From a virus (lineage: Duplodnaviria; Caudoviricetes), in IMG/VR virus record IMGVR_UViG_3300017716_002651, positions 1 to 31,229 of that record: a stretch of 31,229 bases of DNA, one strand, 5' to 3'. The position numbers and the translations under genes were made by a program. Shown here piece by piece: positions 3,008 through 29,448 of the stretch. Each line of letters begins with the position of its first letter. Positions within the stretch are counted from its first letter, which is position 1. The notes below the pieces were generated by a model. It saw only the letters and a program-made list of their open reading frames with translations. It made no database searches and was not told the origin of the DNA.

Positions 3008-3508
3008 ATGAAAAACACAAATTTTGACGTGACTATTAGTTACATGAATGAGGATTTCACTATTAGTTTATCTTCAGACAATTGCACAAATGAAAGCCTA
3101 TTGAAACAATTACAAGAGTTGAAACAAGAAAGATTTGAACAAGAAAGTGGAGAAGATTTTGAAGGAGAATTTGAAGAGGATTTTGAAATTACAGATTGGC
3201 AAGATATTCCAGTTTGGTGTCAAGATTTAGAAATATTAGCAGATTTATTTGATAATTCAGATGATTATTATGAAATAGAAATTTATGAGGCTGCATATTC
3301 ATTAGATATTCCTTTTTCAGATGTTGCAGAGGCTTATTCAGGTGAATTTAACAGCGATGAGGATTTTGCGGAAAATTTAGCTAATGAGTTAGGCTTATTG
3401 CAATATTCCAAAAATTGGCCTTATACCTGCATAGACTGGGAACAAGCTGCAAATGAGTTAATGTATGATTATTGCACCGAAAACAATTACTATTTTAGAA
3501 ATTTATAA
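3008..3508 (+). CDS. ardA: ArdA-family antirestriction protein (acidic DNA mimic)
   Basis: Very D/E-rich; C-terminal YSGEFNSDEDFAE...WPYTCIDWEQAANELMYDY...YYFR matches the ArdA C-terminal pattern. Confidence 0.8.
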   Translation: MKNTNFDVTISYMNEDFTISLSSDNCTNESLLKQLQELKQERFEQESGEDFEGEFEEDFEITDWQDIPVWCQDLEILADLFDNSDDYYEIEIYEAAYSLDIPFSDVAEAYSGEFNSDEDFAENLANELGLLQYSKNWPYTCIDWEQAANELMYDYCTENNYYFRNL

Positions 3509-6955: not shown

Positions 6956-6977
6956 AAAACGCTATAACTAAAAAGTA

Positions 6978-7221
6978 ATGGAAGTTTGGAAAGAAATTCC
7001 TGGTTACAAAGGTTATGAAGTATCTAGTTTTGGAAATGTTAAGTCAATAAGATTTAATAAACAACGTATTTTAAAAGCTGGTAAAAATACTGATGGTTAT
7101 TTGCTATAAAAATAAATGGTTAGCAAGATATAAAGGTAAATATGTTGGTATATTCAATACAGAACTCGAAGCCAACGAAGCCGTTCAAAACTACATTTTA
7201 AACTTAAAAACACAAATATGA
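6978..7221 (+). pseudogene. Internally deleted NUMOD4-HNH-AP2 homing endonuclease
   Basis: MEVWKEIPGYKGYEVSSFGNVKS...TDGYLL* followed out of frame by NKWLARYKGKYVGIFNTELEANEAVQNYIL, matching the two ends of 14352..15008; HNH core absent. Confidence 0.85.
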
Positions 7222-8082: not shown

Positions 8083-8415
8083 ATGAAAAAACAAATAGAA
8101 TTCGACTTCGCTAAATGGGGTCAAAAAGGGATAAGTATTAAGTACAATAAAATACATGACGTTTCGGCTATAATGAAGTCATCTATTCAGTATTTATATG
8201 TTATAGAATATATAGGCTATTTCAGCTTAGGTAAAAAGAATTTAGCTTGCGCTGACAGATGCGACTTGGTTATGTATGAAGAAGTAAAGCCTAGAGAGTT
8301 TTGGGTGAATGTTTATGAAGATGGTTTTTCATTTTTATATGATAGGAAAGCCGAAGCTTACCTGTGTCTTGATATAGGTGGTAAAACTATTAAACTAGTG
8401 GAGGTAATAGAATGA
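8083..8415 (+). CDS. Hypothetical protein, paralog of 8520
   Basis: Shares MKKQIxFDFAKWGQxGIS and EEVKPREFW with 8520..8915. Confidence 0.7.
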   Translation: MKKQIEFDFAKWGQKGISIKYNKIHDVSAIMKSSIQYLYVIEYIGYFSLGKKNLACADRCDLVMYEEVKPREFWVNVYEDGFSFLYDRKAEAYLCLDIGGKTIKLVEVIE

Positions 8416-8519
8416 TAGTAACAGGAACGCAATGCCAGTTAATGGCACAATACTTACTGCAATTACATCCAAGCTAAATTCAAGATTCCATAACCAAAAC
8501 AGATTTAACTTTAATTAGA

Positions 8520-8915
8520 ATGAAAAAACAAATTGATTTCGACTTCGCTAAATGGGGTCAAGAGGGGATAAGTGTAGAATATAACAGGAAAACAATTTTA
8601 ACATTGCACATAAACCCCTTTAACAACGAATACTATTATGGAATAATAAATGAGAATTTGGCGTTTATTGCACCTGCTACACCCTTAACAATGTTTGAAG
8701 AAGTAAAACCTAGAGAGTTTTGGGCACAATACATCATTGCTGATTTAACCGACAAAGCAAATGAAGCAACAGAACTATTTGAGATTGAGGCTTTAAAATT
8801 AGAGGCTCAAAGATTAGGATTGGAGATTGACTTCGATTCTATCTGGGATGAATCAGTAAAACAATTTGTGCAATTGCAACGTGACCAATTATACTTTAAT
8901 ACCTTTGGCATATGA
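8520..8915 (+). CDS. Hypothetical protein, chimeric paralog of 8083
   Basis: Homologous up to EEVKPREFW, then an unrelated C-terminus. Confidence 0.7.
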   Translation: MKKQIDFDFAKWGQEGISVEYNRKTILTLHINPFNNEYYYGIINENLAFIAPATPLTMFEEVKPREFWAQYIIADLTDKANEATELFEIEALKLEAQRLGLEIDFDSIWDESVKQFVQLQRDQLYFNTFGI

Positions 8916-9145
8916 GCACTGAAACACTTGAAGAAGCTGAAAAAGTTGCAAAACTAAAATATGGAGCTACTATATATGGTTTAGAAAGGGTAAATGCTTT
9001 TAAAGCAGGTGCTCAATGTCAAGCAGAAAGAATGTATAGTCAAGAAGAAGTTGAAGTAATAGCTAAAGATGCTTATACTATGGGTAGAAACAATATTCTT
9101 ATAGGAGTATTTAACAAATGGTTTGAACAATTTAAAAAGAAATAA
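8912..9145 (+). CDS. Hypothetical protein
   Basis: ETLEEA...FKAGAQCQAERMYSQEEV...WFEQFKKK; ATGA-coupled. Confidence 0.65.
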   Translation: MSTETLEEAEKVAKLKYGATIYGLERVNAFKAGAQCQAERMYSQEEVEVIAKDAYTMGRNNILIGVFNKWFEQFKKK

Positions 9146-9146
9146 T

Positions 9147-9380
9147 ATGACCGCAAAAGAAAAAGCAAAAGAGTTAGTTGATAAATTTTATCAATCACAA
9201 GTAGCAGTTTTATCTAAAAATGGAACTGCTCAATGGGATTTAATTGAATATGAAATAGCCATAAAATCAGCATTGATAGCAGTTGATGAAATAATAAATC
9301 ATCATTCACAAGAACAAGGATTGTATAGGATTGATACATATTATTGGCAAGAAGTAAAAAAAGAAATAGAAAAATTATGA
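9147..9380 (+). CDS. Hypothetical protein
   Basis: MTAKEKAKELVDKF...ALIAVDEII...YWQEVKKEIEKL. Confidence 0.7.
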   Translation: MTAKEKAKELVDKFYQSQVAVLSKNGTAQWDLIEYEIAIKSALIAVDEIINHHSQEQGLYRIDTYYWQEVKKEIEKL

Positions 9381-9666: not shown

Positions 9667-9945
9667 ATGATTAAAAAAGTGTTATCTTTTTCTGACTGGC
9701 TTAATTTTGGATTCACTCTTCCTAAAAATGATTCCTTTGCAAAATGGAATAAGGAAGGTAAGGAATTAAGGAAGTCAAGAATTGCTCAGATCTGTGATAT
9801 ATGTGATATTTCCAGCACCACTGTTATAAACATTGAAAAGGGAACATTCTATAAAGATATTTACGCTGAGGCAATTGTTAGTTTAGCTGAAATGCCATTG
9901 GTATTTAAACATAAAGAAAATTATTTTTTGGTGGATTTGGATTAA
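9667..9945 (+). CDS. XRE/Cro-like HTH protein
   Basis: IAQICDICDISSTTVINIEKG. Confidence 0.55.
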   Translation: MIKKVLSFSDWLNFGFTLPKNDSFAKWNKEGKELRKSRIAQICDICDISSTTVINIEKGTFYKDIYAEAIVSLAEMPLVFKHKENYFLVDLD

Positions 9946-9952
9946 CGCCCTA

Positions 9953-10025
9953 TAACGTTCCCACGATAGGGGCTGTTTTCCTATGCGGAAACCTACTTTC
10001 GGCAAATAGACCTTATCGTGTGTTA
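9953..10025. repeat. attC-like site S0
   Basis: TAAC-GTTCC-CACGATAGGGGCTGTTT...AAATAGACCTTATCGTG-T-GTTA. Confidence 0.8.
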
Positions 10026-10064
10026 TCAGCATACCACTAAATACTAATTTAAAAATAAATTCAA

Positions 10065-10358
10065 ATGAAAAATATAATGGATAGTTCGGAAACTTTTGAT
10101 GCTTATGCTGAAATTGATTTATGTTATTACTTATTAAAAATGTTATACGAAAATGTTTCAAAAGAAATCGCACCCATAAATAAAATGGTTGATGATGCTA
10201 CTGGAAAAACTCAATCGGAATTAACAGAAAATAGAAAAACTGCAATTAATTTACTTACAAGAATAATTACAGCAAAGAAGATAATTGAAGCTGACTATTC
10301 AGGTGATGAAACTATGTTATCAAAACTCCTGCTAATCGACAAAGTTGTGGGTTGCTGA
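10065..10358 (+). CDS. Cassette 1 hypothetical protein
   Basis: Flanked by GTTATCAGCATACCAC (10022) and GTGGGTTGCTGATAAC (ends 10362). Confidence 0.7.
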   Translation: MKNIMDSSETFDAYAEIDLCYYLLKMLYENVSKEIAPINKMVDDATGKTQSELTENRKTAINLLTRIITAKKIIEADYSGDETMLSKLLLIDKVVGC

Positions 10359-10449
10359 TAACGTTTTCGGGGCTTTGCGTAGTAGCCCTTAGTAGAAACT
10401 TAAAATTAACCACGACACTTGATAGGGATATTACGCAAAACCCTTTTTA
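10359..10449. repeat. attC-like site S1 (GTTA degenerate to TTTA)
   Basis: TAAC...GGGCTTTGCGTAGTAGCCCT...AGGGATATTACGCAAAACCC...TTTATGTGC. Confidence 0.8.
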
Positions 10450-10486
10450 TGTGCCGTTTTTATTCACAATTTAATATCAAACAAAA

Positions 10487-10714
10487 ATGTCAGAACAAGA
10501 ATTTTACCGAAAAACAGATGAATGTATTGCTCGTTTCAAAAATGGAAAAGAACGATACAGAAATTCAGCAACATTTAACAGAGTAGTTCAAATGCTTGTT
10601 AGAGATGCTGACCCTTACGAAATTATTGACCATTTATGTCAGATGTCAGATGACCAAACAAAAGCATTTGAACAATACATTCATCGTGATACTCGTCCGA
10701 TGGTGATGTCTTAA
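10487..10714 (+). CDS. Cassette 2 hypothetical protein
   Basis: 75 aa; ends in AAAATTGCACCTAAC. Confidence 0.7.
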   Translation: MSEQEFYRKTDECIARFKNGKERYRNSATFNRVVQMLVRDADPYEIIDHLCQMSDDQTKAFEQYIHRDTRPMVMS

Positions 10715-10723
10715 AATTGCACC

Positions 10724-10846
10724 TAACGTATGGTGCTTTGCGAAGGCGGGGCATCGAAGAACAAATGTTGAATTAACCACAAAAGATAATTAGATGCAGA
10801 AAGTTGAAAATATAGATAAAACCCCGCTTTTGCAAAGCACGTGTTA
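10724..10846. repeat. attC-like site S2
   Basis: TAAC-GTATG-GTGCTTTGCGAAGGCGGGG...CCCCGCTTTTGCAAAGCAC-GT-GTTA. Confidence 0.85.
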
Positions 10847-11528
10847 TAAGCAGCCTTTTCGGGTGTTGAATTGCTATGCAGGTATTGGAGGTAATCGTAA
10901 ATACTGGGATGGAAATATTGAAGTAACAGCCATTGAGTTTGATGAAAATATTGCAAGTGTTTATAAAGACTTATATCCAAATGATAATGTTATTGTTTGT
11001 GATGCTCACGAATATCTTTTAAACAATTATGAAAACTTTGATTTTATATGGTGTTCACCGCCTTGCCCTACTCATTCAGTAACTAATCATTTTTTAAATG
11101 CACAAGGAATTAAACGCTATCCCGATATGAAATTGTATCAAGAAATAATATTACTACAAACATTTTTTAAAGGGAAATACATAATTGAAAATGTGAAAAG
11201 CTATTATGAACCATTGATTAAACCGCAGATTAGTGGCAGACATTATTTCTGGGCAAACTTTAAAATTCCTTTGCTAAAATTTGAAAAACAAATAGGCCGA
11301 ATGAATGGAAAGAAAGCAGATTTAGGCGGTAAAATACAAGCAGAATTAAGAACAAACAACCATAAGAAGCTCGGATTTGATTTGTCTAAATATACAGGTA
11401 TTGATAAAGAAAAAGTTTTGAATAATTGTGTTGCTCCCGAAATTGGACTTGCAATATTTCAAAGTGCTTTGGATATTTATGATGCTTCAAAAGTCGAACA
11501 GATTGGATTATTTACGGAGCTCTCATAA
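10794..11528 (+). CDS. Cassette 3: small C5-cytosine DNA methyltransferase
   Basis: Motif I VLNCYAGIGG, motif IV SPPC, motif VI IIENV, late NNCVAP; ATG lies in the loop of S2. Confidence 0.85.
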   Translation: MQKVENIDKTPLLQSTCYKQPFRVLNCYAGIGGNRKYWDGNIEVTAIEFDENIASVYKDLYPNDNVIVCDAHEYLLNNYENFDFIWCSPPCPTHSVTNHFLNAQGIKRYPDMKLYQEIILLQTFFKGKYIIENVKSYYEPLIKPQISGRHYFWANFKIPLLKFEKQIGRMNGKKADLGGKIQAELRTNNHKKLGFDLSKYTGIDKEKVLNNCVAPEIGLAIFQSALDIYDASKVEQIGLFTELS

Positions 11529-11537
11529 GGTTGCTTA

Positions 11538-11664
11538 TAACGGTTTGCAGCTACCAGAAGGGCGGGATTTAGAAAACGAAATTATCAAATTAAAAATAAA
11601 ATTATGTTAGAAAACGAAAACATCAATGAACCACAGAACCCCGCCTTTTTGGTAGGTTCTGTTA
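11538..11664. repeat. attC-like site S3
   Basis: TAAC-GGTTT-GCAGCTACCAGAAGGGCGGG...CCCGCCTTTTTGGTAGGTTC-T-GTTA. Confidence 0.85.
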
Positions 11665-12026
11665 GTGGTAGTGCTTTTCGGCAATTGAAATCATTTTGCT
11701 GCGGGCCTACTCGATTTAAAATTGAAGAAGCTATTAATGAAAGACCAATAGATGTTGTTTCAATTACTGGCGATGGGAATGTTTACATTGTTTTTTATTA
11801 CGAAAAGCAATTCTTCAATTTTAAAGAAACTAAACCGCCTATTGGGGTTGAAGTAATGGCTCATTCAAAAAATTGGATACACGAAGATTATAACAAAACA
11901 GGCATAAGAGTTGGATTTTTGAATGAAGATGAAAACGGAGAATTTATTTCAGCAAAATGGGATAATTCAGGAGATACTTATGAGAATTGCGAAGAAGATA
12001 AGCCTGATGTGTGGTGGTATTTTTAG
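11604..12026 (+). CDS. Cassette 4 hypothetical protein (DUF551-like C-terminus)
   Basis: ETKPPIGVEVMAH...KPDVWWYF; ATG lies in the loop of S3. Confidence 0.65.
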   Translation: MLENENINEPQNPAFLVGSVSGSAFRQLKSFCCGPTRFKIEEAINERPIDVVSITGDGNVYIVFYYEKQFFNFKETKPPIGVEVMAHSKNWIHEDYNKTGIRVGFLNEDENGEFISAKWDNSGDTYENCEEDKPDVWWYF

Positions 12027-12035
12027 CATTACCAC

Positions 12036-12161
12036 TAATGGAGGATTATTTGCGTTTGGTGGGGCGTTACACCACCAAAGATTATTAAAAGCACAAAATT
12101 TTAAAATATGCAGACAGATTCTAAAAAGCACAAAACCCCCACTGACGCAAATAATGTGTTA
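12036..12161. repeat. attC-like site S4 (TAAC degenerate to TAAT)
   Basis: TAAT-GGAGG-ATTATTTGCGTTTGGTGGGG...CCCCACTGACGCAAATAAT-GT-GTTA. Confidence 0.8.
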
Positions 12162-12392
12162 GCGGCTGGTTTTCGTTCGCTTCGTGAGGCAAAACGATTT
12201 TCAAAAATGTATGCTTTATTACAAATTTTAAATAGTCAAGTCGATGCTATGAACGATGCTGCTACAATAGTAACAGATTTTCAAAGTGAATGGGCATACA
12301 CAGAACTTTGCCGAATGAATTTACCTGATGGATTTGATAGACTTGGAAGTTTTGATGAGGCATTACGGTGGTTTTTTCAAACTTGCCGATAA
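12108..12392 (+). CDS. Cassette 5 hypothetical protein
   Basis: ATG lies in the loop of S4; flanks GTTAGCGGCTGGTTT / AAACTTGCCGATAAC. Confidence 0.6.
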   Translation: MQTDSKKHKTPTDANNVLAAGFRSLREAKRFSKMYALLQILNSQVDAMNDAATIVTDFQSEWAYTELCRMNLPDGFDRLGSFDEALRWFFQTCR

Positions 12393-12468
12393 CGGTATCG
12401 GGCTTGGCGAAGTGGCTGAACCCGAATTAAAATAGAATTACTAAACTTAAAAATTAATCAATAATAAA
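12390..12468. repeat. Half attC-like site S5 (right arm missing)
   Basis: TAAC-GGTAT-CGGGCTTGGCGAAGTGGC resembles the left arms of S1 and S7; no complementary arm or GTTA before the ATG at 12469. Confidence 0.7.
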
Positions 12469-12711
12469 ATGGGAGCATCAAGAGAAACTTGCGATTTATT
12501 TTGGATACTGCAATTAGCAAAAAAGTATCCCGACAACAAACAGTATTATTACAACCGTTTTTGGTATGTGATAAAACATCAACCTAAACTTATGTTTGAA
12601 GATACTTTTTTGCAGATATGGTGCAAAATTGTAGGACATAAGAAATATGCACCTGATAACGATAATCCAAAAGAAATTGCTTGTAAACGGTGTCATAAGT
12701 GGGTGTCTTAA
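12469..12711 (+). CDS. Cassette 6 hypothetical protein with Zn-binding motif
   Basis: WCKIVGH...CKRCH; ends in AAAATAGCACATAAC. Confidence 0.65.
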   Translation: MGASRETCDLFWILQLAKKYPDNKQYYYNRFWYVIKHQPKLMFEDTFLQIWCKIVGHKKYAPDNDNPKEIACKRCHKWVS

Positions 12712-12720
12712 AATAGCACA

Positions 12721-12782
12721 TAACGGTTTGCAGCTAACAGATAGTTTTTGCTTTTCGCAAAAATTTTGGTTAGGTGCGGTTA
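12721..12782. repeat. attC-like site S6 (short)
   Basis: TAAC-GGTTT-GCAGCTAAC...TTTTTGC-TTTTC-GCAAAAA...GTTAGGTGC-G-GTTA. Confidence 0.85.
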
Positions 12783-12828
12783 GCAGATAGGCACGGTTCA
12801 ATTAGTAAAAATTTAATTATAAATACAA

Positions 12829-13134
12829 ATGGAAAACTCAAAACAAAGTGAAGTATTCTTTCAACTATTTACACAAGTAAGAAAAGAAGTTGCAGACGAA
12901 AACGGCTACCACTTAGCAACTGCAATAATGAAAACTTTTGATAGGTGGAATATGTGGCAAACGGGTATGCCTGAATTTGATGGCAAATATCTTGTGCTAA
13001 TTGAACACGAACAGGAATGTAAAAATGTTTGGAAGTATCAAGAAGTTGTTGATTGCATCTTTAATAATTGGGTATTGAAAGACAAGCAAAAAGTAATAGG
13101 ATGGAAAAAATTATCAAACGAAGACGGTCAGTAG
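12829..13134 (+). CDS. Cassette 7 hypothetical protein (DUF551-like C-terminus)
   Basis: WQTGMPEFDGKYLVLI...VIGWKKL; flanks GTTAGCAGATAGGCAC / GTGCTTTCTGCTAAC. Confidence 0.65.
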   Translation: MENSKQSEVFFQLFTQVRKEVADENGYHLATAIMKTFDRWNMWQTGMPEFDGKYLVLIEHEQECKNVWKYQEVVDCIFNNWVLKDKQKVIGWKKLSNEDGQ

Positions 13135-13144
13135 TGCTTTCTGC

Positions 13145-13270
13145 TAACGGTTCTCGGCTTGGCGAGGTTGGGGGTTTAAAAACACAATCGCTCAAATTAT
13201 TACTAATGTTTAATAAAAGTACAAATGTTTAAATTAGCACAAATGCCCCAATCTTGCCAAACCGATGTTA
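13145..13270. repeat. attC-like site S7
   Basis: TAAC-GGTTC-TCGGCTTGGCGAGGTTGGGG...CCCCAATCTTGCCAAACCGA-T-GTTA. Confidence 0.85.
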
Positions 13271-13926
13271 GTGGCAGTACGGTTTATTTAATGGACTGTA
13301 TCGCCCTAATGAAAGAATACCCTGATAAGTATTTTGATTTGGCTGTGGTTGACCCACCATATGGAATTAATGCTGATGTAAAAAACAGCACTGATAAAAA
13401 GCAAAGTAAAAAAAGTGCTTCCAACTCTAAAAAGTATGGTGAGCAAAAATGGGATGCCGATGTGCCGACCAAAGAATATTTTATTGAGCTTTTTAGAGTA
13501 TCAAAAGAGCAAATTATTTGGGGTGTAAATTACTATCCATTTGACTTTTTAGCTGGTGGTAGAATCTACTGGGATAAATGCGTAACGATGCCAACTTATA
13601 GCGATGGCGAACTTGCTTATTGTTCTTTACTAAATAGCATAAAATCTGTTAAAATAGCTTGGCACGGTATGATACAACACGATATGAAAAACAAAGAAAC
13701 AAGAATACACCCAACTCAAAAGCCTATAAAGCTATATGATTGGATATTCCAAAACTTTGCAAAGGAAGGCGATAAAATACTTGATACACATTTAGGAAGC
13801 GGAAGTAGTCGGATTTCAGCACACAAAGCAAAATTAGACTTTACAGCTTCAGAGCTTGACCCTACATATTTTGCAAACCAAGAAAAAAGGTTTAACGATT
13901 ATAAAAGTCAGCTCACTTTATGGTAG
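13225..13926 (+). CDS. Cassette 8: N6-adenine/N4-cytosine DNA methyltransferase (beta class)
   Basis: DPPY, HPTQKP, ILDTHLGSGS in beta order; ATG lies in the loop of S7. Confidence 0.9.
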   Translation: MFKLAQMPQSCQTDVSGSTVYLMDCIALMKEYPDKYFDLAVVDPPYGINADVKNSTDKKQSKKSASNSKKYGEQKWDADVPTKEYFIELFRVSKEQIIWGVNYYPFDFLAGGRIYWDKCVTMPTYSDGELAYCSLLNSIKSVKIAWHGMIQHDMKNKETRIHPTQKPIKLYDWIFQNFAKEGDKILDTHLGSGSSRISAHKAKLDFTASELDPTYFANQEKRFNDYKSQLTLW

Positions 13927-13979
13927 TCGGTAGTATTGCCACTAACAAGTTTATACACGCAATTCAATAAATTGAACCT

Positions 13980-14201
13980 ATGGGAATCAACGAAATACAA
14001 AATCAAATAGTAAATTCAGTTCAAAATAATGAACTAAGTAACGATAATTTGGTGCAAATAATTGAACTTTGCGGAACATTTTTGAACTTGCAAACTATTC
14101 CAAAATATGCCAAAGAACACAATCTAAGCTATAACGGAGTAAAGAAATGTAGGGAAGTAAAAGAGATACTAGGAGTTAAATTTGTAATTGATAATAATTG
14201 A
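13980..14201 (+). CDS. Small putative HTH/excisionase-like DNA-binding protein at the array end
   Basis: LQTIPKYAKEHNLSYNGVKK followed by a beta-wing-like VKEILGVKFVID. Confidence 0.6.
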   Translation: MGINEIQNQIVNSVQNNELSNDNLVQIIELCGTFLNLQTIPKYAKEHNLSYNGVKKCREVKEILGVKFVIDNN

Positions 14202-14351: not shown

Positions 14352-15008
14352 ATGGAAGAAATTTGGAAAGATATTCCTGGTTACGAGGGTTTGTATCAGG
14401 TAAGCTCTTTTGGTAATGTTAAGTCTTTTAAACGTGGAAAAGAAAAGATAATGAGATTATCATTAACTAATGGTTATCTAAGAGTTAGATTATGTAAAGA
14501 GAACCAAAAAAATATGTTTTCATCCCACGTTTTAGTAGCTATGGCATTTCATGGTCACATTCCTGATGGGTTTAACATAGTTGTTGACCATGACGATAAT
14601 AACCCTTTAAATAATCGTGCTGATAATATAAAATTGATTACTCAACGTGAAAATGCCAGTAAGGATAAAAAAAACAAAACGAGTCAATATGTTGGTGTTT
14701 CATGGAATGAAAGGGATGGGAATTGGGTAACTAGAATTAGATTTGGGAAAAGATATATTCATTTAGGATATTTTGAAACTGAAATTGATGCATCAAATGC
14801 TTACCAAAAGGCTTTTTCAGAATGGGAACAAGGACTAGACTTGAATGTGTTATATCCTAAAAAAATAAATTCTAGCCAATACAAATATGTTTATTGGAAT
14901 AAAAATAAGTGTAAATGGATTGCTGAGTACAAAGGTAAATATTTAGGTCATTTTGATACAGAAATTGAGGCACACAAAGCAGTACAAAAATATATATTAA
15001 CATTATAA
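14352..15008 (+). CDS. NUMOD4-HNH-AP2 homing endonuclease
   Basis: EIWKDIPGYEGLYQVSSFGNVKS; VDHDDNNPLNNRADN; two AP2-like SQYVGV/LGYFETEIDA units. Confidence 0.92.
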   Translation: MEEIWKDIPGYEGLYQVSSFGNVKSFKRGKEKIMRLSLTNGYLRVRLCKENQKNMFSSHVLVAMAFHGHIPDGFNIVVDHDDNNPLNNRADNIKLITQRENASKDKKNKTSQYVGVSWNERDGNWVTRIRFGKRYIHLGYFETEIDASNAYQKAFSEWEQGLDLNVLYPKKINSSQYKYVYWNKNKCKWIAEYKGKYLGHFDTEIEAHKAVQKYILTL

Positions 15009-23106: not shown

Positions 23107-23766
23107 ATGGAAACAAAGTATGTTGGGTATTTTCGTGTGAGTACCAAAGACCAAGGAGAATCAGGTTTGGGGTTACAATCTCAGCGACAATCTGTAAATA
23201 AAATGTTTGGTGAGTGCATTGCAGAATTTACCGAGGTAGAAAGTGGCAGGAAGAAAAACCGACCTGAGTTGTTAAAGGCCATTGAAATGTGCAAACAGAA
23301 AGGTGCTACATTGGTAGTGGCTAAATTAGATAGGCTTTCTCGTGATCCGTTATTTGTATTTACTCTTAGAGATAGTGGTGTGAAGTTTATTGCAGCAGAT
23401 AATGTTCATGCCAATGACCTTACAATAGGTTTGTTAGCAGTTATTGCTGGTAATGAAGCAACATTAATAAGAACTAGAACAAAGGCAGCACTTGCAGTTA
23501 AGAAACAACAATTAGCACTAGAAGGGAAGCGTTTAGGCTGCCCAAATTTAACATCAACAGGCAGAACTATTCAAGAGGTAATCGCTGAGAATCGTAAATG
23601 TAGGGTATATTCCAAGCCTGATTCTGAAAAGGTAAGGACATTAAAGATTTTAAAGGATGCTGGACAGCCAATGGATGAAGTTCAAAGGGTAGCCACACAG
23701 TTATTTGGAAAGACAATTTCAAAAGTTACAATTTATTCATATTTAAAATCATACCAAGCAGTATAA
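23107..23766 (+). CDS. Small serine recombinase (resolvase/invertase)
   Basis: YFRVST catalytic Ser, ESG, RPEL, KLDRLSR, C-terminal HTH ISKVTIYSYL; promoter TTG-N19-TATCTTTG at 23072-23101. Confidence 0.93.
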   Translation: METKYVGYFRVSTKDQGESGLGLQSQRQSVNKMFGECIAEFTEVESGRKKNRPELLKAIEMCKQKGATLVVAKLDRLSRDPLFVFTLRDSGVKFIAADNVHANDLTIGLLAVIAGNEATLIRTRTKAALAVKKQQLALEGKRLGCPNLTSTGRTIQEVIAENRKCRVYSKPDSEKVRTLKILKDAGQPMDEVQRVATQLFGKTISKVTIYSYLKSYQAV

Positions 23767-27333: not shown

Positions 27334-29448
27334 ATGGGAATAAATGTTTTATCATGCTTTGATGGTTGCAGTGGCGGAAATCAAGCATTAGAAAGAATAG
27401 GAATTAAAGTTGACAATTACTTTGCAAGTGAGATTGATAAGTATGCCATCCAAGTTACTATGGCTAATTATCCTAATACTATTCAATTGGGTAGTGTTGT
27501 TGATGTGGATTGTAGTAAACTACCTAAGATTGATTTATTAATTGGAGGTTCACCTTGCCAAAGTTTTAGCTTTGCAGGTAAGCGAAAAGGAATGTCAACA
27601 AAATGCGAAACCGAGATATTAACCCTAGAGCATTACTTGGAACTAAAATCAGATGGTTTTGAATTTGAGGGGCAGTCTTATTTATTTTGGGAGTACATGA
27701 GAATACTAAATGAAGTTAAGCCTAAGTATTTTCTGCTTGAAAATGTAGAAATGGGCGAAAAGTGGGAAAAGGTATTAAGCAAAGCTATTGGAGTAAATGG
27801 TATTCATATTAATTCTGCTTTGGTTTCGGCTCAAAATAGGAAGCGTATCTATTGGTTTAATTTTGGTATTCCTACAATAGATTTGTTTGGAGAAACTACC
27901 TATCACATACCTCAACCAAAAGATAAGGGTATTTTATTGAAAGATATTTTAGATAGTGAAGTTGATGAAAAGTATTTTTTGAGCGAGAAAATGTTAAAAT
28001 CATTAATGGCAGACAAAGACCTTGGTAATGGAGTTTGGAAAGGCATGGAAACAAGGGAACTTTTTGAAAAAGGACATACTATTACAGCTAGAATGGGCAA
28101 ATCTGATAATTACATTAAGATTGATAAAAAAGGAAATGTAAAGGATAACCAAGAAAAAGCATCTTGTTTCACAGCAGGAGGACATTCTGGTGGAAATCAT
28201 TCTGACATGGATTTAATTGTACACAATACAATGCCAAGAAGTAGTACAACAGGGAAAGGAGGAACAGGTCATTTAAGCAGAAACGATGGTAAAACTTATT
28301 GCTTAGATACTGGTAATACAAATGCTGTTGAGATAGTGGCAATGAGAGGCAGAGGTGAAAAAGGTAATATTGAGCAACAACTTAAAACCAATGGTACTGA
28401 TAAAAGTAATTCACTAACAACTGCTCAGAAAGATAACCTTGTAAGACAATTAAACCCATCAACAGAAAGTAATGGTAAGCAACCATACCAACAAAACAGA
28501 ATTTACGATATAGAAGGTATAAGTCCTGCTTTAATGGCTCAATTACCAAAAGGCAGTACAATGATTAATACTTCACGAATTAGAAGATTAACTCCAACCG
28601 AATGCGAAAAATTGCAGACAATGAATCCAGGATATACTAAAAAAGGTTTGGAAAATCATTTCCAATTATTTAACTTTACAGGAAATAAATTTACCTTATG
28701 TCAAAGATTTGTAAAGAAGAAAATTGTAACCAACCAATTTCAAGTAGAGAAACTGAATTATGCCACAAACACCATTATAGACTTATTAGAAACGGAACAA
28801 CTGAATTATCAAGATCACTTGTTGACCACTCTAAAAAATGTATCGTGGATGGTTGTGAACGAAAGCAACAATCTTCAACAGAAACGTGTCTTATGCACTA
28901 TAAAAGATGGAAAAGATATGGGGCATTTATTATTCCCGAAAGAATTAATAAATCAGAATTTAAATGTAAGTTTTGTGATACGAAAGTTGGAAGGTCAGGA
29001 AGCCTTGGAATGTGTAACAAACATTTCCAAATGTTCAGATTACATGGAGACCCATTACATACCGACCAAAGAAGGCTTGCTCCAAACGCATACGGATATT
29101 ATAGAGATACCGATGGAGTCGAATTTCACAGAAAAATTGCTGAACAAAAAATTGGTAGAAAACTTATTAAGGGAGTCGAAGTCGTACATCATATTGACCT
29201 TAATAAAATTAATAATAACCCAAGCAATTTACAAGTCCTTACAAAATCAGAACACGCCCGTACACATCAACAGCTTAATAAAATTGCAGGACAACTCATT
29301 AGAGCTGGAGTTATTGTATATAGAAACGGAGAATATTGTATCAATTTCTGATAGTATGCGTTACAAAATGATTGGAAATGGTTGGACAATTTCTGTGATA
29401 GCCCACATATTTAGTTACCTCAACCTATCTTCAGAAACAACTTCCTAA
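27334..29448 (+). CDS. C5-cytosine DNA methyltransferase with ~230-codon insertion between motifs IX and X
   Basis: VLSCFDG, GGSPCQ, LLENV, QNRKRIYW, repeated variable-region units, RRLTPTECEKLQT, then insertion, then SDSMRYKMIGNGW. Confidence 0.92.
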   Translation: MGINVLSCFDGCSGGNQALERIGIKVDNYFASEIDKYAIQVTMANYPNTIQLGSVVDVDCSKLPKIDLLIGGSPCQSFSFAGKRKGMSTKCETEILTLEHYLELKSDGFEFEGQSYLFWEYMRILNEVKPKYFLLENVEMGEKWEKVLSKAIGVNGIHINSALVSAQNRKRIYWFNFGIPTIDLFGETTYHIPQPKDKGILLKDILDSEVDEKYFLSEKMLKSLMADKDLGNGVWKGMETRELFEKGHTITARMGKSDNYIKIDKKGNVKDNQEKASCFTAGGHSGGNHSDMDLIVHNTMPRSSTTGKGGTGHLSRNDGKTYCLDTGNTNAVEIVAMRGRGEKGNIEQQLKTNGTDKSNSLTTAQKDNLVRQLNPSTESNGKQPYQQNRIYDIEGISPALMAQLPKGSTMINTSRIRRLTPTECEKLQTMNPGYTKKGLENHFQLFNFTGNKFTLCQRFVKKKIVTNQFQVEKLNYATNTIIDLLETEQLNYQDHLLTTLKNVSWMVVNESNNLQQKRVLCTIKDGKDMGHLLFPKELINQNLNVSFVIRKLEGQEALECVTNISKCSDYMETHYIPTKEGLLQTHTDIIEIPMESNFTEKLLNKKLVENLLRESKSYIILTLIKLIITQAIYKSLQNQNTPVHINSLIKLQDNSLELELLYIETENIVSISDSMRYKMIGNGWTISVIAHIFSYLNLSSETTS
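28647..28678 (+). promoter_or_regulatory. Internal promoter for the nested HNH gene
   Basis: TTTG-N20-TAACTTTA (one mismatch to TAnnTTTG), overlapping hairpin TTGGAAA-ATCA-TTTCCAA, 19 nt before ATG 28698. Confidence 0.55.
28698..29351 (+). CDS. HNH endonuclease nested out of frame in the MTase
   Basis: Three Cys/His repeats (C...C...C-x2-H-x2-R...G) and HRKIAE...VVHHIDLNKINNNPSNL...EHARTH. Confidence 0.9.
   Translation: MSKICKEENCNQPISSRETELCHKHHYRLIRNGTTELSRSLVDHSKKCIVDGCERKQQSSTETCLMHYKRWKRYGAFIIPERINKSEFKCKFCDTKVGRSGSLGMCNKHFQMFRLHGDPLHTDQRRLAPNAYGYYRDTDGVEFHRKIAEQKIGRKLIKGVEVVHHIDLNKINNNPSNLQVLTKSEHARTHQQLNKIAGQLIRAGVIVYRNGEYCINF

Follow-up and report, generated by a model that had tools for sequence, protein, structure and literature searches.

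Integrons are treated as bacterial or archaeal devices defined by the recombinase IntI. In their usual polarity each gene is followed by its own attC site, a cluster of attC sites without an integrase is called a CALIN, and the Xer recombinases are tied to one chromosomal resolution site. Integron cassettes recombine as single strands by way of circles, and replication resolves the intermediates. IntI is defined by an additional domain or insertion (PMC9668308) and reads two single extrahelical bases lying about 6 nt apart on one side of attC (PMC3053210). IntegronFinder 2.0 finds almost no integrons in Bacteroidetes (PMC9024848). In T4-like phages, regulatory stem-loops known as PeSLs lie between non-essential genes, mark points of exchange and can yield small circles; they are described as promoter–terminator units that recombine mutually (PMC2839356). 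Here we describe an array of small gene cassettes at 9953–13946 of a 31,229-nt viral DNA, the whole of IMG/VR record IMGVR_UViG_3300017716_002651 (hereafter the window, meaning the entire stretch analysed). We consider it probable that this is a mobile cassette array worked by a small XerA-like tyrosine recombinase from outside the contig, which would act on single-stranded hairpins as in integrons. Our literature search, with most subscription papers and bioRxiv supplements outside its reach, found no published description of such a cassette system.

The array consists of eight sites of the form TAAC...GTTA and eight small genes, two of which encode DNA methyltransferases, and all of these features lie on the + strand. 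An initial annotation of the same DNA had proposed six inverted pairs, each bracketing one gene, with complementarity across the gene and not across the spacer. All six pairs are present, and over the 10 nt beyond the core 49 of 60 positions were complementary across the genes, compared with 17 of 60 across the spacers. The six pairs form the diagonal of the match matrix, and this pairing was the best of 720 permutations, the next best scoring 45. Among the 2,856 GTTA/TAA[CT] pairs that lie 150–1500 nt apart in the window, five matched at 8 or more of 10 positions, four of which are brackets of the array. The further proposal of eight bracketed cassettes separated by palindromes of 62–127 nt held for six intact units and seven complete palindromes, and gave way at two sites. 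Site S1 (10359–10449, 91 nt) has a mutated 3′ core, reading TTTA at 10446 where its homologues, including two intact ones in locus L217, read GTTA. Site S5 (12390–12457) is a 5′ half, its 3′ arm and GTTA having been deleted after 12457; over these 68 nt it is 91–94% identical to intact 120-nt sites in loci L379, L003 and L006.

At all seven complete palindromes the gene strand folds better than its complement (z −2.0 to −3.9). A stem detector found six sites scoring above 13 in the window, every one inside the array and on the + strand; in six control sequences its false hits numbered 0.17 per strand at a score of 12.5 and fell to zero at 13.5. We also built a covariance model on 48 sites, four of which are among the eight in the window, and it recovered all eight array sites (E 2.7e-20 to 0.065), with two weaker matches elsewhere in the 31 kb (E 0.12 and 0.46). 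The sites share a layout of TAAC followed by G, 3–4 extra bases in the 5′ arm, a stem of some 20 bp closed by a variable loop rich in A, and finally GTTA, and most are 120–130 nt long. The extra bases form a 3–4-nt bulge beside the core in 138 of 163 sites. Across the 48 sites, which were chosen by the stem detector so that their pairing is partly built in, 87.7% of cells were paired, covariation was 0.55 (compared with 0.14 ± 0.01 in shuffled and 0.09–0.14 in slid alignments), and two G·T pairs were nearly fixed, being kept in 47 and 45 of the 48 sites. Compensatory changes at 18 of the 25 pairs show that these sites preserve their structure and not their sequence. A 7-nt RYYYAAC/GTTRRRY consensus is kept only loosely, the actual core being TAAC/GTTA. 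Rfam returned no relevant family in the window, and a generic repeat finder did not reveal the architecture of the array.

Cassettes of the window recur in other contexts. Cassette 7 matches a contig from public run X2 over 12719–13148 with zero differences and diverges on both sides, and cassette 8 (13141–13946) is carried at 96% identity by a related locus (L008) whose neighbouring genes differ on both sides. Contigs from runs X2 and X3 match most of cassette 4 up to its closing TAA (11560–12038, with 3–4 differences) and diverge after it; this end, at which the window reads TAAT, would fit a cut between TAA and C. A public-run contig matches 10151–10362 in cassette 1 and ends at TAAC, and in five relatives the match to cassette 3 ends at the closing TAAC (11542–11550). 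The proposal of a modular, shuffleable locus withstood the refuting conditions that had been attached to it: gene content and order vary among relatives, exchange points coincide with the core, and cassettes appear with other neighbours.

To these matches can be added comparisons among related arrays. We compared 63 pairs whose gene bodies had an identity of 90% or more: both flanking sites were kept in 36, only the upstream site in 25 and only the downstream site in 2. Alignments among 12 cultured Flavobacterium phages (Lillamy-, Mumin- and Hattifnattviruses) gave 71 distinct ends, of which 56 fell at a TAAC core, counted from −6 to +12, against 3.8% expected; two others lay at undetected cores, seven within sites and six within gene bodies. 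These phages also show clean deletions of one or two cassettes, and one cassette in an altered position. Together, the site-retention counts, the core-centred ends and the clean deletions show that each cassette comprises a single site and the gene that follows it. The initial annotation had called the sites attC-like and the brackets the footprint of integron cassettes inserting at attC. This identification with attC in its standard polarity was not borne out, as the crossover lies at the 5′ TAAC, the gene moves with its upstream site, the bulge geometry differs and the linked enzyme described below has no IntI insertion. Homologous or microhomologous recombination between repeated regulatory stem-loops, in the manner of PeSLs and with no dedicated enzyme, would accommodate the seven ends inside sites, as well as two complete cultured phages that have active-looking arrays and in which we found no small recombinase. 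However, the window sites are mutually 39–68% identical, with 20 of 21 pairs sharing at most 10 nt; alignment ends concentrate at a core of 4 nt; homologous exchange does not generate complementary ends specific to each cassette; and a recombinase is tightly linked to the arrays. We regard this route as highly unlikely.

No tyrosine recombinase is encoded in the window (by Pfam and tblastn), as had been noted at the outset. The co-occurring enzyme that had been suggested as a target of search was found in related phages: an XerA-like protein of about 270 aa that has same-strand sites within 3 kb upstream in 53 of 56 phage loci (those with 2 kb of upstream sequence among 80 fetched relatives), none on the other strand, and sites downstream in 2 of 77. 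In phage loci L009, L055, L113 and L137 the recombinase measures 266–277 aa and lies on the same strand as the cassettes. In the first three it starts 42–56 nt past the TAAC of the last cassette, and a conserved non-hairpin site stands about 56 nt ahead of the start codon in the phages. The phage enzyme is closest to XerA, with PDB entries 4a8e, 5hxy and 1a0p as its best structural relatives by sequence (E 5e-31 to 3e-24), and its bacterial relatives match family NF040815 best. The enzyme of L009 aligns with VchIntIA (2a3v) in two pieces, 34 of its residues spanning 82, and the bacterial relatives match TIGR02249 below its cut-off and in two stretches. Relatives of the enzyme occur in 34 of 101 Bacteroidota genomes at E 1e-45, and in 15 of 20 bacterial loci, drawn from the 39 matches listed, sites are arranged in either of two fixed ways: on the opposite strand downstream (10) or on the same strand upstream (5). 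From this linkage we infer that the enzyme probably catalyses cassette exchange. Its supply from outside is plausible for the window, because neither the window nor the two complete cultured phages have such a gene.

The sole site-specific recombinase in the contig is a serine resolvase (PF00239, phrog_125; 23107–23766), which we rejected as the enzyme of the array and to which we give next to no chance. Its gene lies 9 kb from the array, the enzyme linked to the arrays of other phages is a tyrosine recombinase, and neither a resolvase nor an integrase appears in the annotation of phage hemulen6-1, which has 15 sites. The small tyrosine recombinase also appears in cultured Polaribacter phage Leef_1 (L443), with sites upstream, where it is annotated simply as an integrase; Bartlau et al. 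interpret the integrase of Leef as indicating lysogeny (PMC8776804). In Ingeline_1 a single weak site (E 0.038) precedes the recombinase gene. Related tyrosine recombinases lie near sites in L176, L193, L222, L241 and L242, and in the last four of these the gene stands together with one for an IS91-family transposase, which may connect these recombinases with transposons that move as single strands.

The orientation of the genes relative to the fold bears on what the hairpins do. In all 43 phage cassettes examined the gene lies on the strand that folds better, the reverse of integron polarity; of 54 cassettes at bacterial loci, 45 have the usual integron polarity. One strand folded better in 329 of 392 viral sites, a set partly selected by the detector. 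Of 272 cassettes, 111 had the first ATG, in any of the three frames, within the site that precedes the gene, and window genes 3, 4, 5 and 8 are of this kind; because the site sits upstream of the gene, many cargo genes receive their start codon from it. One possible explanation for these features is that the same recombinase works on double-stranded TAAC like an ordinary Xer enzyme, and that the hairpin serves termination or translation control at the RNA level. An enzyme nearest to XerA and XerD without an IntI insertion agrees with this, as do the location of the better fold on the mRNA strand in every phage cassette and the frequency of start codons inside sites. However, no mRNA function explains why bacterial-locus sites fold on the non-coding strand in 45 of 54 cassettes. 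Sites with almost no sequence in common beyond the core keep both bulge and stem. Promoter and terminator scans were at chance level (24 sigma-70-like matches versus 22.3 expected, in a scan that lacked Bacteroidota promoter types, and 3 terminators versus 2.7). We therefore consider this explanation unlikely.

The 3′ end of the array is formed by two features that were absent from the initial annotation. An attI-like site (13943–13979, + strand) with a TAAC core and no hairpin carries an inverted repeat, TTCAA-N4-TTGAA, just 5′ of the next ATG, and this ATG opens a 73-aa gene (13980–14201, + strand) in the slot that the recombinase occupies in other phage arrays. The 73-aa family is large and unnamed, with 1,786 proteins. 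The arrangement of TAAC, 13–17 nt and inverted repeat ahead of the gene recurred in 28 of 34 loci, some of them near-duplicates, and the TAAC closed a cassette bracket (at least 8 of 10 positions) in 17 of 26 loci, compared with 10 of 788 control cores. The covariance model placed 43 sites in 37 loci with the gene, all on the + strand and 39 of them upstream. The gene was found in none of 80 recombinase loci, the recombinase in none of these 37 loci, and a small recombinase in none of seven complete records bearing the gene. End sites of three classes have the pattern TAAC-T...ATA(T) in common, and the end site of the window resembles those of phages and chromosomes. In the cultured phages distal cassettes are constant and terminal ones variable, and on this ground the terminal site would be the point of insertion.

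The 73-aa protein was modelled at a pLDDT of 96, and its C-terminal half is predicted to resemble a winged helix-turn-helix. The top fold matches of residues 35–73, all with weak scores, were RdfS (8dgl), Pukovnik Xis (4j2n, a mycobacteriophage protein; Z 3.4, rmsd 1.9 over 39 residues) and BldC (6amk). The protein had no Pfam family, no sequence match in the PDB and no Foldseek match at E 0.001; its atlas matches were all unnamed, and a search of 301 Bacteroidota genomes, run without a positive control, gave no hit. It probably binds DNA and regulates either the terminal site or its own promoter, and we hypothesize a role in regulation or directionality. The slot is not exclusive to this family, because other arrays end in other small genes. 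In the cultured Flavobacterium phages L001–L007 a third type of terminal gene encodes a 65-aa protein (hemulen6-1 gp004) that may be a ribbon-helix-helix protein.

These observations allow a broader proposal, which we put forward tentatively and consider rather doubtful as a whole. Bacteroidota phages may run a second, IntI-independent integron system of reverse polarity, a large class of which has swapped its recombinase for the 73-aa Xis-like protein; this protein would sit on the docking site and recruit or steer a recombinase borrowed from the host or a co-infecting phage, and the enzyme-less phages would draw anti-restriction cassettes from a pool that they and their hosts have in common. 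At the other extreme, the array may have been made by an integron-like system in an ancestor and now be frozen without access to an enzyme, the 73-aa gene being a mere neighbour. The contig without a recombinase, the mutated S1, the TAAT core of S4 and the truncated S5 all agree with a frozen array. We nevertheless judge it very improbable, since copies found among other neighbours match cassette 7 exactly and cassette 4 almost exactly, cultured phages without a recombinase still differ by whole cassettes at more than 99% identity, and the 73-aa family retains its end site at fixed spacing.

In the mechanism we favour, a mobile array worked by an outside recombinase, the gene strand would fold into hairpins and the enzyme would cleave between TAA and C. 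The cassette would leave as a circle, its two ends rebuilding one hairpin, and would re-insert mainly at the attI-like site at 13943, which would place the newest cassettes at the 3′ end. The enzyme may come from the Bacteroidota host, a co-infecting phage or an unsequenced part of the genome. Cassettes would be read in the direction of phage transcription, and the likely benefit is fast exchange of anti-restriction methyltransferases and other accessory genes. Several observations weigh against this mechanism. The linked enzyme is without the IntI insertion that hairpin substrates are considered to require, 5 of the 20 bacterial recombinase loci have no nearby site, and two of the eight units in the window are damaged. 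The strand bias is partly built in, as the stem detector gave partial credit to G·T pairs. Among 15 more diverged gene-body pairs both sites had changed in 12, and 13 of the 71 alignment ends fall within a site or a gene body, so other routes of exchange act as well; many of the compared pairs and ends belong to a single phage group and do not represent independent events. Finally, neither a clean cassette skip nor an excised circle was seen among the listed joins of assembled public-run contigs.

Along the array, S0 (9953–10025) is a 73-nt hairpin at the head of cassette 1, with an 84% identical homologue in L306, and the gene of this cassette (10065–10358, 97 aa) lies in a body with intact brackets (10022–10362). 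Locus L217, which holds the two intact S1 homologues followed by different genes, belongs to a contig labelled Nitrosotalea with arrays on both strands and phage-like cargo, and is probably a mis-binned phage. Beyond S1 follows the open reading frame (ORF) of cassette 2 (10487–10714, 75 aa), with no Pfam or PHROG match. The next three sites each contain the first ATG of the gene behind them: S2 (10724–10846, 123 nt) that of a 244-aa C5-cytosine DNA methyltransferase in cassette 3 (10794–11528, PF00145), S3 (11538–11664, 127 nt) that of the 140-aa gene of cassette 4 (11604–12026) and S4 (12036–12161, 126 nt) that of the 94-aa gene of cassette 5 (12108–12392). Behind S5, cassette 6 is a truncated unit with no 5′ bracket (gene at 12469–12711, 80 aa). 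S6 (12721–12782, 62 nt) precedes the gene of cassette 7 (12829–13134, 101 aa), with relatives in L168 and L169, and S7 (13145–13270, 126 nt) contains the first ATG of cassette 8, a 233-aa N6/N4 DNA methyltransferase (13225–13926, PF01555). S0, S2, S3, S4, S6 and S7 were identified by stem and covariance model, and the genes other than the methyltransferases as ORFs. Cassette 4 had no relative in IMG/VR, and cassettes 2, 5 and 6 had no tblastn match among the fetched loci.

By Pfam, the record carries genes for DnaB, NUMOD4-HNH proteins, three DNA methylases and the serine resolvase; because no capsid or terminase gene was found by Pfam across its 31,229 nt, the genome behind it is probably incomplete. 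Among public runs the record is best represented in a freshwater metagenome, possibly the one it came from. A Bacteroidota host appears likely because of the resemblance to Flavobacterium phages and the occurrence of the sites in mostly Bacteroidota genomes. A weak ArdA antirestriction match at 3008–3508 (E 9e-5, below cut-off) and the third methylase (27334–29448) suggest several anti-restriction genes. Paralogous small genes with near-identical starts (8083–8415 and 8520–8915) adjoin short ORFs at 8912–9380 whose ends are common to many contigs with many joins, and 8083–9380 may thus be another region of shuffling, one without repeats. At the start of the window, two tRNA-like genes whose anticodon-arm regions are long lie at 458–564 (Rfam tRNA, 36.4 bits) and 638–734 (a cloverleaf-like fold); ARAGORN called neither and found no tRNA in the window. 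A broken NUMOD4-HNH-like remnant at 6977–7200 resembles the intact gene at 14352–15008.

Methyltransferase cassettes, which supply two of the eight cargo genes here, are common in relatives. Nilsson et al. report that phages with reduced plating on LMO6 lack one methyltransferase, and make no mention of cassettes (PMC7077304). The gene in column 2 of their Table S13, absent from lillamy, morran and stinky phages (PMC7077304), sits in cassettes that were removed at TAAC in stinky9-1 and lillamy9-1, and is probably that methyltransferase. Programmed, site-specific shuffling of phage genes would explain part of phage mosaicism, as well as the odd N-termini shared by many small flavophage proteins. 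The system would also test the need for the IntI insertion in hairpin recombination, and cultured Lillamy and Mumin phages that differ by single cassettes make it testable.

Compared with described systems, the array shares with integrons, above all the sedentary chromosomal ones and CALINs, its tandem single-gene cassettes, structure-conserved palindromic sites, GTT/AAC cores, cassette-specific complementary ends, polarised variability and methylase cargo, and related phage arrays also have one non-hairpin end site beside a tyrosine recombinase. It differs in being borne by a phage, in having genes on the folding strand, 3′ of their own site and often starting inside it, and in its linked recombinase of 266–277 aa without an IntI insertion, in whose place the window has the 73-aa gene. 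A 3–4-nt bulge beside the core stands where attC has two extrahelical bases, and no pair of the attC type was seen in the site alignment or pair counts. The array-linked enzyme has its closest relatives in XerA, XerC and XerD (NF040815; 4a8e, 5hxy and 1a0p), but unlike these it is linked to cassette arrays and variable hairpin sites. The 73-aa protein departs from the winged helix-turn-helix of Xis and other recombination directionality factors in its extra N-terminal helical pair and has no sequence match. Stem-loops between genes that mark points of exchange are a feature in common with PeSLs, but the sites here have little sequence in common, recombine at a core of 4 nt, have matched gene ends and are linked to a recombinase. 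The system is thus integron-like in its working, yet because IntI insertion, attC geometry and polarity, three defining or usual features of integrons, all fail, we do not class it as an IntI integron.

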